Source of the DNA: an uncultured Actinomycetota bacterium
GTDB lineage: Bacteria > Actinomycetota > Acidimicrobiia > Spongiisociales > UBA4744
DNA: 64,000 nt
Assembly (NCBI GenBank): GCA_963823915.1
Contig: CAWGNJ010000004.1
Coordinates: forward strand, 6,915 to 70,914
Direction of reading: 5' to 3'
A program made the translations under genes and the position numbers. The notes beneath the pieces were generated by a model. That model saw nothing but the letters and a program-made list of their open reading frames with translations, was not told the DNA's origin and made no database searches. Position 1 is the stretch's first letter, and every line of letters begins with the position of its first letter. This document shows positions 2,652-24,108 of this stretch, one piece after another.

Positions 2652-3490
2652 TGGAGAAGGAAATGGAAAACGCGCGACGGCCTGGACGATTCGGCGGGGT
2701 GGAATGCCGATCATTGCTACAGCTATACATGCGGGGCACGATGTTCGGCCGGAAGTAACCGACCTCTTCGAGATAACGGAAGAGGACCGCCTTCGAGAAG
2801 AAGACCCTTTCACGGATCGTTGGATCTCAGTCGCGGACAATCGGCTTGCGGTTCAGAGGTCGCGGTTCGAAGTCGATCTCAACCGGCCACGCCCGAAGGC
2901 CGTCTATCTCGACTCCCGAGGACGCTTTTGATCTGAAGGTGTGGAAGGACGGTCCTTCCGATGCGATCGTGCAGCGATCCCTCGGAATCTATGACGACTT
3001 CTACGAGGAATTCCGCGGCTTTGTGCGATGACGTTGAAGCCCCCACGGGCAGTTTGTGGTGCTCGACCTCCACTCTTACAACCACCGTCGCAATGGTCCG
3101 GATGCTCCGGTGGACGATCCCGAGAAGAACCCGGAGATCAACGTCGGGACCGGCTCAATGGACCGGGACCGGTGGGAGGGACTCGTGGATCACTTCATCA
3201 AGGACGTGGCCGCGTCGCCTTTCGACGGCGGGCATCTCGACGTGCGGGAGAACGTTCGTTTCCAGGGCGGGCACTTGGCCCGCTGGGTGCATGAGAACTA
3301 CCCCACCTCCGGATGCGCACTCGCCATCGAGGTCAAGAAGGTCTTCATGGACGAGTGGACCGGTCAAGAGGATGAAGCGGCGATGGTGAGCATGCTGGAA
3401 GTGCTTCGAGCGACGGTACCGGGTTTGCTCGAAGAGGTTGGCCGGCTGACGCCGACCGAATCAGGGGTCGGTCGAGATCGACGAGGTTGA
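2651..3490 (+). pseudogene. N-formylglutamate amidohydrolase (FGase) family protein; at least three frame disruptions
   Basis: ATG 2651 shares its A with the upstream TGA stop. The pieces are [18 protein letters not shown]...DPFTDRW, KVWKDGPSDAIVQRSLGIYDDFYEEFRGF and QFVVLDLHSYNHRRNGPDAPVDDPEKNPEINVGTG...ALAIEVKK. Two in-frame stops at 3029-3037 are bypassed only by frame changes. Confidence 0.7.
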
Positions 3491-6596: not shown

Positions 6597-7364
6597 TCAT
6601 AATCCAGTGTCCGGTGGTTGTGTCGGTGGCGCATTTTTCTGGTCCTGGGCCGGACTGATCGTGAATCCGGCTGTCAGGAGTTGCGTGTAGGGCACATGCC
6701 GCTTTCCGCCCTGGGTACTCTCTAGCTCCAAGGTGGCCGGATGAAGCTCGACCACCTTGCCGGTCTCCTCCCCGAATTGCAGTTGCATGCCCGCGTCCAA
6801 GAATCGTGCAACATATCTTCCGGCACTTATCTCTCGCGCAGCGGGACGTCCTCCCAACCCGACCAAAAGGGCGCCCGATAGGGCCACTCCGAAGCCGGCC
6901 AACCCGACCACGATCAACAACACGGTGGTGTCGACCCCCAACTGGGCGAGAGCCAATAGGATCGCCGCGCCCAATACTGTCCAGCGGGCTATCGAACCGG
7001 CTCGCCGGGCGGTTCGGCCGGACGCTCGTTCGAGCCCGAACATCAGCAATCGGGAGGCGGCGACCGCCACCGCGTACCCGGCGAAGAGGATGAGGCCTGC
7101 GGCGAGCAGCCTTGGCATGTAGTCGAGGAGCTGGCGGGGGACATCTTCGAGGGTCTCGGGCCAGACGAGCGCTACTGCCAGGAGCACTCCGACGAGGCTG
7201 AGGAACCAGAACGCAAACAGCCCGGCGATTCCGGCTATCGGCCTGGTTGCATCGCCGCCGGGTGTTTTGAGCAAGCGTCGGCGAATCAGCCAACCGGCCG
7301 CGGCCCCGAGGACCAATCCACCGGCCACGAAGGCAAGCGCCAGGAGCCACCGTTCAGTCGTCAT
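6597..7364 (-). CDS. Small MscS-like / conserved-TM-helix membrane protein
   Basis: 255 aa with 4-5 TM helices, then a beta-rich C-terminus (GMQLQFGEETGKVVELHPATLELES). Co-oriented with, and overlapping, the anti-sigma gene. Confidence 0.45.
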   Translation of the reverse strand: MTTERWLLALAFVAGGLVLGAAAGWLIRRRLLKTPGGDATRPIAGIAGLFAFWFLSLVGVLLAVALVWPETLEDVPRQLLDYMPRLLAAGLILFAGYAVAVAASRLLMFGLERASGRTARRAGSIARWTVLGAAILLALAQLGVDTTVLLIVVGLAGFGVALSGALLVGLGGRPAAREISAGRYVARFLDAGMQLQFGEETGKVVELHPATLELESTQGGKRHVPYTQLLTAGFTISPAQDQKNAPPTQPPDTGL

Positions 7365-7671
7365 CTTCCTCCGTCATGGCATCGAACACTCTCCAACCTA
7401 GCGAGAACAGGTCGGCCGCCACCGACCACGTGGCTGTGTCTCTGGATCGTTTCTCGACGGTCAGTCTGATGCGGTCTGCGAAGCCGGCGTGAGGGGTGAC
7501 GACCTTGGCCAGCAAGTCACGAGCTTCGCGGTCGAGGCCGGTCAGGGTGTCGAGTTCGGTCAGACAACGCTCGCATGAGCTCACATGCCGGGTGAGATCA
7601 TCTCGCATTCCTCCAGCCCATCTCAAGAGGGCGCGACGGTGGGGGTGACGGCTCACGACTCCTCCCGCCAT
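7354..7671 (-). CDS. zf-HC2-type anti-sigma factor
   Basis: Contains HVSSCERCLTELDTL (H-x3-C-x2-C) and lies immediately downstream of the ECF sigma gene. An alternative start is ATG 7608, preceded by GGAGGA. Confidence 0.65.
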   Translation of the reverse strand: MAGGVVSRHPHRRALLRWAGGMRDDLTRHVSSCERCLTELDTLTGLDREARDLLAKVVTPHAGFADRIRLTVEKRSRDTATWSVAADLFSLGWRVFDAMTEEDDD

Positions 7672-8180
7672 TCGCGCAGTTCATCCATCAGCTCTTTCCG
7701 GGCGCGAAACAACCTGGTTTTGACCGTTGAGAGCGGCACCCCGAGAACCTCGGTGATGTCCTCATAACTCAGCCCTTCCAGCTCGCGGAGGGTAACAATC
7801 GCGCGACTGACGCTATCCAGCTCGAACAAGGCATCCTCGAAAGCTGCCATCAAGGCCCGATCCATTGCCTCCGTCTCAGCAGAGGGGGCGGCGCGATCCG
7901 GCATTGCCAGGGGGTCGACAGGCGTGTCCCGTAGCCGGCGCAGCTCTGACACTGCTGCGTTGTGAACGATGCGCAGCAACCAGGTGCGGAGCTGGGATTC
8001 ACCCCGAAAGTGGTCCAGGCCGAGCCAGGCCTTGATGAGGGACTCCTGAACGACGTCCTCGGCTAGGACGGGGTTGCGCACCACCGCCACCGCTACGCGG
8101 TACATGGCAGCTGCGTGGTCTCGGTAGAGGGTTTCGAGATCGAGGTTGTGTTCATGTCCTGGCTCTGTTTGCGGTTCCAT
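7653..8180 (-). CDS. ECF-type RNA polymerase sigma-70 family factor
   Basis: Region 2 (ETLYRDHAAAMYRVAVAVVRNPVLAEDVVQESLIKAW) and region 4 (VTLRELEGLSYEDITEVLGVPLSTVKTRLFRARKEL) are both present. The ORF is open to 8324, but the internal ATG 8180 gives a typical 176-aa length. Confidence 0.85.
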   Translation of the reverse strand: MEPQTEPGHEHNLDLETLYRDHAAAMYRVAVAVVRNPVLAEDVVQESLIKAWLGLDHFRGESQLRTWLLRIVHNAAVSELRRLRDTPVDPLAMPDRAAPSAETEAMDRALMAAFEDALFELDSVSRAIVTLRELEGLSYEDITEVLGVPLSTVKTRLFRARKELMDELREWREES

Positions 8181-8331
8181 GGCGGCCGTCGAGTTATGGA
8201 CGACAGTCGGGTCTTCGAGGTCGCGCGAGATTGCTGCGAACCAGACCGTGAGACGCTCACCCAGCGCGGTGGCGAGTCGGATGATTGCCGTGGCGGGATC
8301 GGTTTGGCGGAGAGAGTGGAGCACCGGAGAG

Positions 8332-8607
8332 TTAGCCTCGACTGCGTTTCGACGGGCGCACGCGAACTTCAGGCGCCAGGTCTACCAACCCTAGGTCGAT
8401 CCAGAAGCCGTACGACAAGTGATCCTCGATGGCAACCCGGGTGGCAACCGGGTCCCCGAATGCCTCGACCGTGATCAGCGCCTGGTTGCCGGTCACCCGC
8501 AGATCGACCAACTGCACCCTCAGCGGGGACAACCGGGCGTCGAGGGCGCGACGTAGGGCCGCTACCGAGATTGTGGTTTCGCCAGCGGGTCCATCCTGTA
8601 CGCGCAT
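8332..8607 (-). CDS. Small hypothetical protein resembling the C-terminal domain of the AmaP-like proteins encoded at 9131-10206
   Basis: 91 aa. TISVAALRRALDARLSPLRVQLVDLRVTG..ITVEAFGD parallels TRVTAAAIRRAVSQRLRDLPGVVAASPIAHRR..DMRVEIGQG in ORF 9652..10206. Confidence 0.35.
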   Translation of the reverse strand: MRVQDGPAGETTISVAALRRALDARLSPLRVQLVDLRVTGNQALITVEAFGDPVATRVAIEDHLSYGFWIDLGLVDLAPEVRVRPSKRSRG

Positions 8608-8693
8608 GAGGGCACGATAGAAGATCCGACGCGACTTATCGCCTCGACCGGGCGTCTGTCCAGTGAGGTCAACGACACAAGGAGATGTGGGTT

Positions 8694-9134
8694 ATGGCAG
8701 ACGTAGCAGTACAGGACGTAGCAGTGAAGAAAGAGCGGGTGCTCGAGGGTTTCGTGTTGGAAACCGAGAAAGGGATCACCACCGTGGCCGACGTCGTGGT
8801 GGCCAAGATGGCCGGTATCGCGGCGCGTGAGGTGGAAGGCGTCCACGAACTCGGAAAAACGTTCCGGCGGTTGCTGGGTCGGGTCAGCCCGGGCGAATCG
8901 TTGAGCCAAGGTGTCAATGTTGAGGTCGGCAAACGGGAAACGGCCATCGATCTCGTGATCGTCATCGACTACGGCTACTCAATTCCGGCGGTGGCTCAAG
9001 ACCTGCGGGAGAACGTCATCACCAAGGTCGAAACGGGCACCGGTCTGGTGGTCAAGGAAGTGAACATCGAGGTCTCCGATCTTTTCGTTCCCACCGGCGA
9101 GACCGAGCCCACCTCCGCCTCCCGGGTCGAATGA
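8694..9134 (+). CDS. Asp23/Gls24 family envelope-stress protein
   Basis: Contains GITTVADVVVAKMAGIAAREVEGVHEL...GVNVEVGKRETAIDLVIVIDYGYSIPAVAQDLRENVITKVE. AAGGAG is 9 nt upstream of ATG 8694; the ORF track starts at 8685. Confidence 0.85.
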   Translation: MADVAVQDVAVKKERVLEGFVLETEKGITTVADVVVAKMAGIAAREVEGVHELGKTFRRLLGRVSPGESLSQGVNVEVGKRETAIDLVIVIDYGYSIPAVAQDLRENVITKVETGTGLVVKEVNIEVSDLFVPTGETEPTSASRVE

Positions 9135-9655
9135 TCAGGACCATCGTTCTGCGAGTCCTCGGCCTCCTGGTGGTCGCCGCCCTCGGGTTGGCGGCCACCA
9201 GTCTGGTCGCTTTCGGGTTGGAGCGCCGGGTGCCGTGGCTATCCGACGGCATTCGCTCCTTCGCCGATTGGGTACACACCCCCCCATTGAAGGGTGCGGC
9301 AGTTCTGGCCGGCACCGGGTTGGTGGTGGTTGCCATTGCGGTCGTCATCGTGGTGGCTGCCCGCCGCATCCGCGGAGTTCGGAATCTTGACAAGACGGCG
9401 GCCGGATCCACCGTCATTGACATGGAATCCGTGGGAGACGCACTTGAGCTGTCGCTTCGCCGCATCGACCCGAAGATGCAGGTGACCTCCCGCCGGAGCA
9501 GGCTTCATGTTGCCGCTCCGCCGGGTTCCGGAGATCGGTTCGAAGTGGCCGACGAGGCCAGCGGTCTCGTTCGTGAGGCACTCGAGCAGATGGGACTGTC
9601 GGACACGCCGTTCACAGTGAGTGTCCGACAGGTTCCCGAAACGAGGGTGACATGA
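9131..9655 (+). CDS. AmaP-like alkaline-shock membrane anchor protein (copy 1)
   Basis: ATGA start/stop overlap with the Asp23 gene. Two TM helices are followed by a soluble domain, which is the usual Asp23-operon partner architecture. Confidence 0.55.
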   Translation: MIRTIVLRVLGLLVVAALGLAATSLVAFGLERRVPWLSDGIRSFADWVHTPPLKGAAVLAGTGLVVVAIAVVIVVAARRIRGVRNLDKTAAGSTVIDMESVGDALELSLRRIDPKMQVTSRRSRLHVAAPPGSGDRFEVADEASGLVREALEQMGLSDTPFTVSVRQVPETRVT

Positions 9656-10206
9656 GAGCCGTGCAGCGGATCTCCGCGCTCCTCGGTTGGCTGGCCATCC
9701 TCGCCACCGGACTGTTGTTGATCGCCGAAGCAACCGGCATCGCCGGAGGACGATGGAGACACACCGTCGGGGACGTAGCCGAGTGGATAGACCGGTCGAA
9801 CTTGGCGAGGTGGACGGCGGCGCTGCTCGGAGTCCTGATCGGACTGGTAGCTCTCGCCGTGCTGATTGCCCAATTCATCCCCGCGCAACTCACCGGACGT
9901 TCCTCCGTGGTAGATCGAGGCACAGCCGGATCGACCCGGGTCACTGCCGCAGCTATTCGGCGTGCGGTCAGTCAACGCCTGCGTGACCTTCCCGGCGTGG
10001 TCGCTGCCTCTCCCATCGCTCATCGGCGACGCCTAGACATGAGAGTCGAGATCGGTCAAGGAGCCAACGCCGATGCCGTTACCCGGTCGGTACGGGCACA
10101 ACTCGACGAAGAGTTCTGGGGATCCCTCGGAACCGAGGAGATCCCCGTCGACGTGCACCTCACCTACGTACCCGTCGCTGCGCGAACTGAGCAGGAGACA
10201 GCATGA
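9652..10206 (+). CDS. AmaP-like alkaline-shock membrane anchor protein (copy 2)
   Basis: ATGA overlap with the preceding gene and the same architecture as 9131..9655. Confidence 0.55.
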   Translation: MRAVQRISALLGWLAILATGLLLIAEATGIAGGRWRHTVGDVAEWIDRSNLARWTAALLGVLIGLVALAVLIAQFIPAQLTGRSSVVDRGTAGSTRVTAAAIRRAVSQRLRDLPGVVAASPIAHRRRLDMRVEIGQGANADAVTRSVRAQLDEEFWGSLGTEEIPVDVHLTYVPVAARTEQETA

Positions 10207-10379
10207 ACGCAAAGACCTACGGAATGATCATCGGAATCACCCTGGCCGTGATCTGGCACTGGCTCGGCGGGACGGCGGTACTCTGGTCCGTGCTACTCGG
10301 CCTGATGGGCTTCCTCATCGGGTGGGTACTCGAGAACCCGCAGAGCCTGATCAAGGGCCTCCAGCGCCTCGAACGCTGA
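10203..10379 (+). CDS. DUF2273-like small integral membrane protein (58 aa; below the ORF-track cutoff)
   Basis: Manual translation: MNAKTYGMIIGITLAVIWHWLGGTAVLWSVLLGLMGFLIGWVLENPQSLIKGLQRLER*. ATGA overlap with the upstream gene. Two-TM mini-proteins are typical of Asp23 operons. Confidence 0.55.
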   Translation: MNAKTYGMIIGITLAVIWHWLGGTAVLWSVLLGLMGFLIGWVLENPQSLIKGLQRLER

Positions 10380-10522
10380 CATCAGCACCCGACCTGTAGG
10401 AAGGATTCGCTTTGTTGCGAAGCGGAACCCCGGCGCCGGAAGCGGCTCGGCGAAGATGCGGCCCAACGCTGTCACAAGATGATATTCAACTTGCAGTGCT
10501 CGACCTATGAGGATTCGGGACA

Positions 10523-10603
10523 CAACGCAGCTCACACGACAAGACTGAACTCCTCTGCAGCGGAACCCGCGGGGTGAGGGTTCGAGTCTGTCCTCCGCGG
10601 CCC
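10523..10603 (+). ncRNA. Module A1: conserved box (..TCACACGACAAGACTGAACT) plus a tRNA-minihelix-like hairpin
   Basis: At 10568-10600 a 7-bp acceptor-like stem CGCGGGG/CTCCGCG stacks on a T-arm-like hairpin GAGGG-TTCGAGT-CTGTC (G-TTCGAGT-C fits the T-loop consensus). It is homologous to module C at 23977-24054. It lies in a 430-nt non-coding gap between convergent genes. Confidence 0.35.
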
Positions 10604-10687
10604 TAGGGAATGCGGCTGGTTCCCGGATCCCGCTGTATGCGCTGCTGGCCTTACGCCGCGACGGAGTACGACCTGGCGAGTGGCGCC

Positions 10688-10726
10688 GGGCGTGTAGTTA
10701 GTTCCGATATCCCCCCTCCGACACCA
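10688..10726 (+). repeat. Module A2: GCGTGTAGTTAG...CCGATATCCCCCCTCCGACACCA, ending in a tRNA-3'-end-like ..ACCA
   Basis: About 76% identical, without gaps, over about 50 nt (extending into the terminator) to 18296-18345. It shares the exact 13-mer CCCTCCGACACCA with 24042-24054. Confidence 0.4.
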
Positions 10727-10728
10727 AC

Positions 10729-10756
10729 AAACCCCCAGTTCAACGGGGGTTTTCTT
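10729..10756. terminator. Intrinsic terminator hairpin, potentially bidirectional
   Basis: aaaCCCCCagttcaacGGGGGttttctt. The U-tract is on the + strand and an A-tract/TTTGTT on the - strand, downstream of the convergent gene ending at 10810. Confidence 0.6.
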
Positions 10757-10809
10757 ATTCTCTTCCAGAGGGTTTGAATTTGTTGTGTCTGTGGGGTCGA
10801 AACTCTTTG

Positions 10810-11562
10810 TCATGGTGCCGGGTTGATGGGATCGCCTGGGTTCCAGGCTCCGAACCCTCCTATCGGGTCGGGTGGGCAGAGGTCATAGAGTTCCTGGAAA
10901 TCCAGATTGGACGTTACCGAGAGCGGGTAGTCGTCGTGCTCGAAGTTACCTTGGAGGGCGATGAGTTCTTCCAGGGTCGGATACCTCTCGTAGACGTACC
11001 CGTACTCAGCGGCGCAGTCCCGCCAAGCGAGCTGGTAGGAATAGACCTCCTCCCACATGGCCCTCGTTCTGGGTACCGATTTGGGGAAGTGAAGACCCTC
11101 GTAACAGGCTATTGCGGTGGCCATCCCCATCTGTCGTCGTTCAGTGGGGAGCAGGTAGAGGTTGAACCCCTCCCGCTCGTCGACTCCGTCTCCGAATCCG
11201 TGGTCGATGACGCACTGGGTCTTCAGGCGATCCAGCCAACCCAAATCGAGGTCGAATCGTTCCTGAGGGGTGATATCGGAGAAGTCGGCGTACCCCTCCA
11301 TGGGTGGCAACAGGAATGGTCGACCCTGGCTGTCGACCGGCCCGAAATACTCGCCGTGTAGATCATCGAACAGACCCAACCGGCGGGCACGTTCCTCGAT
11401 TGTTAGGTCCTCAAGATTGGTGGTCGACGGAGACTCGGAAATCGTTGTGGAACCTTCTGGCGAGGTCGTGGTGGACGGTGAATTGGTTGCGGTCACCTCG
11501 CTTGATCCCGACCCGCATGCTGCCAGCACCAGGACGCCAGCCACCAACACCGCTTTGGCCAT
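10810..11562 (-). CDS. Hypothetical lipoprotein with Ser/Thr-rich linker
   Basis: The internal start gives MAKAVLVAGVLVLAACGSGSS (lipobox LAAC), then a TSP-rich linker and a Cys-containing globular domain. Confidence 0.6.
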   Translation of the reverse strand: MAKAVLVAGVLVLAACGSGSSEVTATNSPSTTTSPEGSTTISESPSTTNLEDLTIEERARRLGLFDDLHGEYFGPVDSQGRPFLLPPMEGYADFSDITPQERFDLDLGWLDRLKTQCVIDHGFGDGVDEREGFNLYLLPTERRQMGMATAIACYEGLHFPKSVPRTRAMWEEVYSYQLAWRDCAAEYGYVYERYPTLEELIALQGNFEHDDYPLSVTSNLDFQELYDLCPPDPIGGFGAWNPGDPINPAP

Positions 11563-11943
11563 TGACGGCGGGTGACTTCTCCAGAGTCCAGATTCCACGG
11601 GCACTTCTCTCCAAAGCTACATCGGCTGGAGACACTCTCCGGCAAACAACCTGAAGCGATATCCTTATCCGGTCGCGGGCTAGCGCCCGCCGACACAGGT
11701 ACGAAGGCGACCGTCCGACCCTCCTAGGTCTCCCAATCCTCAAGCCGCCACTCCGGGTGGTCGTCTCTTGACGAGAGTCCTCCGACACTGAGAAAACCCC
11801 AGGCCAGATGCCCACGGATGACCGCGGGTAGGCGGTTCAGTAGCGACCAACAGGCGGTCATACACCCAGGTCTCCCAGCCGTTCTCCGCCAAGGACGTGC
11901 GCCCAATCGGCGCGCCGCTCGACGCCTTCGGCAAGTGTGGTGA

Positions 11944-15900: not shown

Positions 15901-16482
15901 CGAACAGATCTCCTCGTCGGTGAGGCTGACCTCCTGGGCCGCAGCCGGTGTCACGGTGCCTGCGATCGCCGCCACGCTGGGAAGCATGAGGGCGGTGACG
16001 GCCGCCGCTACGCCGGCGCCGGCCAGGGTTCGTTTCATGGGGCCGGTGCGGCCAACCATGAGGCCGATGCCCAAACAGGCGCTAAACCAGGCGAGCGTCT
16101 GGCCGAGGCGCACGGTGCCGGTGCGTGACGCCAGTCCAGCAACCTGCATAGTGACGATCCCAGCACCCCACAGTACGACACCCAAGGGGCTGCGTCTGGC
16201 GTAAAGACCGCGCTCCTCGCGGTTGATCTTGAGTGTCAACCCCTGGGCGAAACCGAGGGCGAGACCGGCCAGGACTGCGACGATGAACGCCACGGTTGTC
16301 GTGTTGATCCTCGTTACGGCCGCCATGACGATGATGGCAGCAATCCCGATTGCGGCTCGGGTCAAGTCGAAACCGGGCCGGATCTTGCTCTTCTTGCGAG
16401 CGAAGATCACGGCGAACGTCAGTGACGCAACGGTGAGCACGATCGATCCGATCGTTACCGCTCGCGCCAACCCTTCCCCCAA
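12972..16482 (-). CDS. Roughly 1170-aa multidomain membrane/secreted protein: polytopic TM N-module, extracytoplasmic domain, PT-linker, Ala/Asp/Arg coiled-coil region, C-terminal Pol-beta-NTase-like region. One frameshift near 15695
   Basis: GGGAGGAGG lies 7 nt upstream of the TTG start at 16482. ORF 15610..16482 (5 TM helices plus a signal-like MKRTLAGAGVAAAVTALMLPSVAAIAGTVTPAAAQ at 16038) has no stop before it overlaps ORF 12972..15815. The sense junction is ..NQFEIEIEAA|AWYQDWAENGSVLDD. Confidence 0.6.
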
Positions 16483-18139: not shown

Positions 18140-18290
18140 CCGTACCAGCGGCGCAGCAGCCGGGTGGCTTCGAGGCGGAGAGGGCCCAGCGATCGTGACG
18201 GACTCGACCCCGTGGGTATGACAAGGGTCCGACGACTCTATCCAGGCGACTCGATATACGGATCAAACGGCGCGCAGCTAGGCCTCCCAG

Positions 18291-18332
18291 GGGTCGCGTG
18301 TACTTGGGGTTGAAGTCGCTCCTCCGACACAA
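18291..18332 (+). repeat. Module B: degenerate copy of the minihelix/CCUCCGACAC module
   Basis: GGGTCGCGTGTACTTGGGGTTGAAGTCGCTCCTCCGACACAA. It has a T-loop-like GTTGAAGTC and a partial acceptor pairing GTCG../..CGAC. It is homologous to 10688-10726 and lies in a divergent intergenic region. Confidence 0.4.
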
Positions 18333-18335
18333 ACA

Positions 18336-18368
18336 AACCTCCAGGTCACAGGCTTGGACGTTGTTTCT
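18336..18368 (+). terminator. Candidate intrinsic terminator following module B
   Basis: AACCTCCAGG-tcacagg-CTTGGACGTT forms a 10-bp stem (one mismatch, one G-U), followed by GTTTCTT. Confidence 0.4.
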
Positions 18369-23976: not shown

Positions 23977-24108
23977 GCGATTCACACGACGAGGCTGAAC
24001 TTGTCGGAGGGAGCGCAGCCTGGGGCCAAAGTACGAATCCGCCCTCCGACACCATTGCCGACCACAGGCTGCCGGGGCGGTGAGGGCGCGCTGCGGGAGG
24101 GTGTTTTT
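23977..24108 (+). ncRNA. Module C: conserved box + 9-bp hairpin ending ..CCCTCCGACACCA, with a downstream competing GGGAGGG-U-tract (attenuator-like)
   Basis: The box gcgatTCACACGACGAGGCTGAACT matches 10523-10551 with transition-only differences. GTCGGAGGG (24003-11) pairs with CCCTCCGAC (24042-50). The loop has a D-arm-like AGCGCAGCCTGG and a T-loop-like GTACGAATC. CGGGAGGG at 24094-24101, followed by TGTTTTT, can pair with the same CCCTCC instead. Confidence 0.35.

Follow-up and report, generated by a model that had tools for sequence, protein, structure and literature searches.

A tRNA-like intergenic gap is an integration scar, very probably left by serine-recombinase elements at tRNA-Leu

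In an uncultured bacterium, an Asp23 operon and a convergent gene are separated by a gap, positions 10380-10809, in which letters resembling parts of tRNAs precede a strong terminator. Does it hold an RNA gene, the decayed remains of one, or a structure of another origin? The window analysed here is a stretch of 64,000 nucleotides (G000:C4:6915-70914) from a MAG with six contigs that is 53% complete and has 62% G+C. According to the ORF list, the gap is bordered on the left by a 58-aa gene that closes the operon (10203-10379, plus strand), with Pfam matches to Asp23 and DUF6286 on the genes upstream of it, and on the right by a 264-aa gene (10810-11604, minus strand) for which the Pfam search gave no match. 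The Asp23/ECF block as a whole (6598-10461) is a conserved module in relatives and the sole part syntenic with G001 (L042, G001:C9); since this synteny reaches only to 10461, the gap is a synteny breakpoint. In G001 the block is followed on its 3' side by what we take to be rplM-rpsI, and the orthologue of the 58-aa gene there adjoins these genes, not this gap. A homologue of rplM was not found in our own, incomplete, assembly.

A sequence-only reading of this DNA had found no credible ORF in the gap, and we agree: mechanical ORFs of 30-93 aa are present, and none matches Pfam. The letters that it singled out are also in place. CGCGGGG (10568-10574) and CTCCGCG (10594-10600) enclose GAGGG-TTCGAGT-CTGTC, together called a tRNA 'minihelix', and CCCCCCTCCGACACCA at 10711-10726 is followed by a hairpin at 10729-10752 with a T-tract, the only terminator-like site that a terminator scan found in 10000-11200. 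A further 'conserved box' at 10523-10551 did not hold up, because its sole outside match (10539-10574, E=9e-4) lies inside a G031 coding sequence, presumably that of a translation-factor-like protein (frame ...NKIDLPAAEP...), and is due to chance.

Recombinase tails and a displaced tRNA end

In a DNA search of 61 relatives, positions 10655-10728 matched 8-10 loci in several genera, with a block of about 65 nt that contains long invariant runs. At L005 and L032 this block forms the 3' end of an ORF of 564 aa, which runs on the opposite strand, and the ORF at L032:369-2063 carries the Resolvase, Recombinase and Zn_ribbon_recom domains (Pfam) of a large serine recombinase (LSR), with Pfam matches on the homologues as well. 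Nucleotide matches and translation identify 10651-10725 of the window, minus strand, as the last 24 codons and stop of such a gene, a tail that we call type B and that forms the P arm of the junction. Its frame, GVGGGISELTTRPAPLARSYSVAA followed by the stop, can be compared with intact LSR tails ending ...VRVGGAIPMLTTRPAPLARAYSVTV and ...VRVGGPTPTLTTRPAPLARSYFLAV; the intact proteins P0002 and P0007 end ...LTTRPAPLARAYSVTV and ...LTTRPAPLARSYFLAV, and the tail at L002 reads ...ELTTRPAPLARLYSVAA. Within the tail, the CGTGTAGT box (10691-10698, assigned to no strand) is invariant in all ten homologues. It corresponds to ACYMCACG read outward, at position 18 from the centre of the site, and is a putative outer motif of the recombinase-binding type that also encodes the T-T-R of the tail.

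The tail runs into tRNA sequence. Positions 10710-10726 on the plus strand comprise the 3' strand of the T-stem, the 3' strand of the acceptor stem, the discriminator A and the CCA of tRNA-Leu(GAG), as judged from identity to the genome's own gene: 10710-10724 is identical at 15 of 15 positions to its end at C1:357933-357947. The tRNA-Leu genes of relatives have the same 3'-end sequence, with the CCA encoded. Inside this tRNA end lies the shared core, CCTCCGACAC (10715-10724). The B' arm, 10727-10757 on the plus strand, is native tRNA-Leu downstream sequence with its intrinsic terminator, as seen from the terminator scan, from relatives and from an empty site in G007; the tRNA-Leu 3' end and terminator of G035 and of G004 (L004, L006) share 90-91% identity with 10710-10752. 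The right side of the junction is thus the sequence found 3' of the target in unoccupied genomes, and the left side, 10655-10725, aligns with the tail side of L016, L015, L003, L005/L032, L026 and L028. We conclude with high confidence that 10651-10757 as a whole is best explained as a type-B recombinase tail joined to a displaced tRNA end and terminator, an attR-type junction. The predicted terminator at 10729-10752, which now closes the 3' region of the Asp23 operon, probably ends transcripts of that operon and possibly those of the convergent gene; beyond it, the gap would seem to have no present function.

The 'minihelix' is a second remnant of the same kind. On the minus strand, 10567-10597 reads in the frame GGQTRTLTPR (type A), and 30 of 33 nt in this region agree with metagenome contig L035, where the LSR 3' end is uninterrupted and the tail is GVGGQTRTLTPRGAPSGEFPLAA followed by a stop. 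A second uninterrupted LSR tail, L022 of G006, is 90% identical to it over 30 nt. The remnant has an internal deletion of about 18 nt, and its homology stops 5 nt into the core (CCTCCG). Between the two tails, the spacer at 10598-10650, assigned to no strand, is element DNA 3' of the type-B stop codon and is partly conserved with the homologous junction L002 of G011 (the GGTTCCCGGATCC block). The notion that the 'minihelix' derives directly from a tRNA can therefore be set aside: the segment is a recombinase gene tail in reverse complement, and looks like a T-loop because the tail DNA mimics the tRNA target. Its 'acceptor stem' is partly fortuitous. We also tried the segment as a deleted initiator or other tRNA, and found no specific match among the genome's own tRNAs.

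A partner for such a junction exists elsewhere in the genome. Directly against the tRNA-Leu(gag) gene at C1:357862-357947 stands a minus-strand LSR gene (C1:359468-357953), which contains many frameshifts, as does much of the assembly; these may reflect either decay or assembly indels. Contig L035 links a body of this C1 type with the GGQTRTLTPR tail, so the 'minihelix' is the tail type of the LSR that now sits at the genome's own tRNA-Leu. On another contig (G000:C3:762953-763028), beside tRNA-Gly and tRNA-Cys, ARAGORN called a tRNA whose anticodon has four bases (gacg); an assembly indel in a tRNA-Val is the probable cause.

An RNA gene, a decayed tRNA or a chimera

Direct searches for an RNA gene were negative. 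ARAGORN found no tRNA or tmRNA gene in the window, and related loci were likewise negative; Rfam gave no match at gathering score in the gap region. In a cmscan of 10250-10900 at E<=10 there were just two chance matches, both to human lncRNA models, and even at this threshold no match to the Rfam tRNA model. No tmRNA was found in the gap by the ARAGORN tmRNA search or by Rfam, and no covariance model of YrlA or other Y-RNA-like RNAs, of the ydaO riboswitch or of another Rfam family matched it, so both checks speak against any likeness to tmRNA (RF00023), tRNA, Y-RNA or riboswitches. Only the last 16-17 nt (10710-10726) are tRNA sequence, in contrast to what a tRNA gene or pseudogene would present. 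Folding energies do not exceed those of shuffled sequences (z-scores of -0.16 for 10380-10660 and -0.92 for 10640-10760), and the consensus fold of ten homologues, at -9.1 kcal/mol, includes a covariation term of only -0.03 kcal/mol. Taken with the absence of Rfam and ARAGORN matches, these values argue against the idea of an unannotated structured RNA gene.

One could still suppose that a tRNA-like small RNA gene, either a 'minihelix' borne by a mobile element or a Y-RNA- or tmRNA-like RNA with a CCA end, is transcribed from the gap and ends at the terminator 10729-10752. A strong terminator does stand directly 3' of an NCCA end, the block is conserved at the nucleotide level with third codon positions included, and a 6-bp hairpin (10673-10678 with 10684-10689) is kept in ten homologues, with two pairs changed on both sides and, in L026, an insertion of 14 nt in the loop. 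However, the conserved block is in frame with LSR genes and ends at their stop codon, both 'compensatory' changes fall on third positions of codons in the PAPLAR stretch and are synonymous, and a predicted inverted-repeat binding site fits the nucleotide invariance. With the negative searches, the fold z-scores and the covariation term given above, and with a scan that gave no promoter-like site, such a gene is very unlikely. It is likewise very unlikely that a resident tRNA (Leu, or initiator Met in the case of the 'minihelix') or tmRNA decayed in place with no mobile element involved. The tRNA-Leu 3' end is perfect and keeps its terminator, the 'minihelix' has a T-loop-like GGTTCGAGTC, and GCGTG stands 5' of the T-arm in both the window copy and the real tRNA, all of which such decay could explain; but over the 60 nt 5' of the tRNA end the homology is to LSR tails and not to tRNA-Leu, the 'minihelix' matches the LSR tails of L035 and L022 over 30 nt or more and none of the genome's own tRNAs better than a generic T-arm, and an intact tRNA-Leu(GAG) with an abutting LSR is present elsewhere in the genome.

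The remaining alternative concerns the assembly: the scars would be real, and a chimera formed at the repeated tRNA-Leu end and terminator would have placed them beside genes, the Asp23 operon on the left and accessory genes on the right, that are not their true neighbours. The MAG, with its six contigs, partial completeness and frequent frameshifts, invites this suspicion, as do the synteny breakpoint against G001 and the multi-copy nature of the repeat family. The repeats are short (about 15-70 nt) and diverged, though, and unlikely to mislead an assembler that yielded contigs of 200-900 kb, and L002, from another genus, has the same order of tail, spacer, core and terminator. We regard a chimera as very unlikely. 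The gap is an integration scar and not an RNA gene, and its bases are conserved because they hold a protein-coding tail and recombinase-binding motifs. Of the earlier suggestion that this is a decayed tRNA-derived locus, one part survives, in that its second tRNA-like element is indeed a displaced tRNA-Leu 3' end with a terminator; the cause is site-specific integration and not the decay of a resident tRNA or tmRNA gene.

Attachment sites and two forms of the recombinase

All four kinds of attachment site can be read from these genomes. The order tRNA end, core, terminator (attB) is found in G007 and L006; tail, core, LSR body (attP) in L032, L016, L035 and L022; tRNA end, core, LSR body (attL) in C1; and tail, core, terminator (attR) in the window. 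Their comparison places the crossover within or beside CCTCCGACAC. The attP-type sites are imperfect inverted repeats, with 15-21 of 32 positions matching, and carry ACYMCACG at position 18 in both arms in three of the four uninterrupted sites and in the right arm only in L022. As in the model for the Listeria A118/LI integrase (PMC3783163), attP forms a pseudo-palindrome, about 50-54 bp long, whose arms each bear an outer motif. In that model the zinc-ribbon motif of serine integrases is shifted by 5 bp (PMC3783163), and the tRNA arm of attB is similar here, having ACYMCACG at position 12, about 6 bp nearer the centre. Unlike the A118/LI sites (PMC3783163), the right arm of attB shows a shift of just 1-2 bp, and the identical core of attP and attB appears unusually long at 10-12 bp; the fit to the serine-integrase model is therefore partial.

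The recombinases themselves fall into two length classes. Among 18 close homologues, 13 sequences were read. Three of these, of 562-564 aa, have the tail ...VRVGG(A/P)IP.LTTRPAPLAR(A/S)Y..., the third (P0012) in the variant form ...VRVGGPTATPSTRDPWEAVLDLAA, and the other ten, of 545-561 aa, are clipped to a ...GGGT C-terminus. Copies that adjoin tRNA-Leu, of 545-552 aa, end ...VGGGT, and their last codons, GGA GGG GGG ACT TGA, are the reverse complement of the tRNA-Leu T-arm and acceptor. In the wider family (812 clusters at E<=1e-30), 10 of the 27 divergent representatives that were read, at 35-52% identity, end VGGGT; five more end in near variants (VRRGT, VRGGT, VEGGT), and several others read into a tRNA in another frame, for example ...RGDLNPHALLGH. 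At L038 the LSR gene (620-2278) overlaps tRNA-Leu(AAG) (2259-2343), on the opposite strand, by 20 nt, and an overlap of tRNA and LSR genes is found in three independent assemblies. The two length classes and this overlap indicate that attP lies inside the LSR gene, as in self-partitioning integrases.

These observations suggest how integration would proceed. With the element's attP in the recombinase gene, about 20 codons 5' of the stop, a crossover within the shared core CCTCCGACAC, at a position that the comparison only brackets, would split the gene. The gene body would stay beside the now complete tRNA (attL) and would end ...VGGGT by way of the tRNA T-arm reverse complement, while the tail, the last 18-20 or so codons, would move to the far end of the element and be joined to the displaced tRNA 3' end and terminator. 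By the same scheme, 10567-10597 would be the partly deleted tail of a second element, of type A. The clipped LSR body, which lacks about 19 residues, all of them beyond the Pfam domains, is probably still active.

The nature of the elements can be glimpsed from relatives. At L043, secG, a His_Phos_1-family gene, tpiA and pgk come after the LSR gene; upstream of the tRNA-Leu of our own genome we take two ORFs, from their sequence, to be tpiA and gpmA, a neighbourhood similar to that of L043. The element side of L043 (1-9300) contains a TrwC relaxase, an AAA_30 helicase and type I restriction-modification genes; a second core was not found in 10 kb on that side. This gene content suggests that some elements of the family, at least, may be conjugative or mobilisable. 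A scan of viral contigs for the core gave no match, and hence no sign of a phage origin; a scan of a genome collection gave a handful of MAGs and two chance matches (Achromobacter and a haloarchaeon). One LSR homologue bears the source label 'Acidimicrobiia bacterium'. The 60.6-kb contig G050:C59 (which includes L005, L017, L027 and L032) repeats with an exact period of 22,436 bp over at least two periods and carries an uninterrupted full-length LSR; this contig is a tandem array or else the concatemeric assembly of a circular element.

Integration history and relation to known systems

The gap is thus very probably the distal, attR-type junction of LSR elements at tRNA-Leu, where integration events would have been catalysed by the LSR. 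Junctions of the attL type are present at C1 and also at L038 and L043, C1 being on another contig than the gap. The attL is directed at the right end of C1, 10 kb away, and the attR at the left end of C4, at a distance of 17.6 kb, from which we infer that C1 and C4 are two ends of one island split by the assembler. The contig ends showed no overlap and no spanning or split ORF, and no single contig holds both junctions. Some observations run against a simple picture. The LSR at the C1 attL matches the type-A tail of the 'minihelix', not the type-B tail of the intact gap junction, and the type-A remnant has no host arm. Several scars, moreover, each have their own terminator-like host arm (10727 and 18331 in the window, and in G007); such duplication counts against simple site-specific recombination, because this leaves the host arm single. 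The locus would therefore not be a simple attL/attR pair of one element, and its history appears to include several insertions and deletions. To the left, the gap may not border on plain island cargo. On the right, we looked to synteny of the 264-aa gene for an empty site and rejected it: the G007 orthologue lies between two tRNA-SeC genes and is not syntenic. These tRNA-SeC genes, at 7125-7219 and 9033-9123 of L033 (G007:C9), are 1.8 kb apart.

Further scars lie in the same orientation as the gap tails. At 18283-18333, minus strand, CVGGATSTPSTRDPWEA followed by a stop matches the P0012 tail (...GGPTATPSTRDPWEAVLDLAA), and within 18283-18360 CCTCCGACAC and a terminator-like arm, now decayed, come after this tail. 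The unit occurs in several copies, in G007 (three), G001 and G005, and between 16.6 and 21.1 kb of the window it alone is conserved, not the flanking genes. Another remnant, related to GGQTRTL, is found at 23985-24054 on the minus strand (GVGGRIRTLAPGCAPSDKFSLVV and a stop, ending in CCCTCCGACACCA). A much weaker candidate for a tail remnant is seen at about 11770-11800. At G000:C4:2662-2820 (L016:1497-1655), 4.1-4.3 kb before the start of the window, an uninterrupted remnant of tail, core and body preserves just the last 53 LSR codons, at 83% identity to the L005 enzyme, the remainder of the gene being absent; possibly it marks where stacked elements meet. In the relative G007, L034 (G007:C15) has an unoccupied tRNA-Leu(gag) with its terminator at 3395-3482, and tail-plus-core scars 7.6 and 12.4 kb downstream of it (11100-11150 and 15926-16000), the first joined to LSR-body-like sequence and the second to a second copy of the terminator.

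Integration into tRNA-Leu by serine recombinases is already known: eight serine recombinases of Mycobacterium AICEs target one tRNA-Leu gene, and such targeting is there called rare (Ghinet et al., 2011, PMC3218068). Our case shares with these elements an actinobacterial host, an LSR with the Recombinase domain PF07508 and the tRNA-Leu target, and, in the TrwC relaxase of the relative L043, a counterpart to conjugative or mobilisable cargo. It differs in that the host clade is apparently Acidimicrobiia, and the likeness drawn here is one of target and domains. The accessible part of the same paper (PMC3218068) does not mention attP within the ORF or C-terminal clipping, both of which are present in the LSR family described here. 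For these the closer parallel is archaeal. In 'suicidal' tyrosine integrases of the SSV1, pTN3 and pT26-2 types, the integrase gene contains attP, a tRNA gene serves as target, and integration partitions the integrase gene and leaves the detached piece at the far junction; a 2021 review holds recombinases that interrupt the gene encoding them to be exclusive to Archaea and of the tyrosine type (PMC8371274). In contrast, the present enzyme is a serine recombinase in Bacteria, and it loses just the last 18-20 or so residues and keeps all recognised domains. The locus also resembles the tRNA genomic islands of tyrosine integrases, with a displaced copy of the tRNA 3' end at the distal border and copies that pile up at one tRNA; here, however, the recombinase family is another, and the repeat is flanked by a recombinase gene fragment and not by arm-type binding sites. 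The scar, in short, is an ordinary object and the LSR family a less ordinary one, the self-clipping gene layout being its less familiar part.

We offer, as a tentative proposal that we ourselves consider improbable, that this LSR clade corresponds, in Bacteria and among serine recombinases, to the self-partitioning integrases of Archaea. From the circular element would come a full-length LSR with the conserved tail (LTTRPAPLAR.Y and variants), from the integrated one the clipped ...VGGGT form, and the difference in length could act as a built-in switch of direction or stability. The right arm of the host site resembles that of the element, so attL would stay attB-like, and newcomers could stack at the same tRNA to give the scar arrays at 10.6, 10.7, 18.3 and 24.0 kb.

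With this analysis a candidate RNA gene gives way to a mobile-element boundary, which explains the assembly break near tRNA-Leu and shows the accessory genes at 10.8-24 kb to lie among integration scars at a tRNA-Leu hotspot. An apparently Acidimicrobiia clade joins the few serine recombinases known to target tRNA genes. Its layout, with attP inside the ORF and two isoforms, is otherwise known, in the literature surveyed, only from archaeal tyrosine integrases. The attB/attP pairs of such LSRs can be read directly from genomes, which makes them useful for integrase prospecting.
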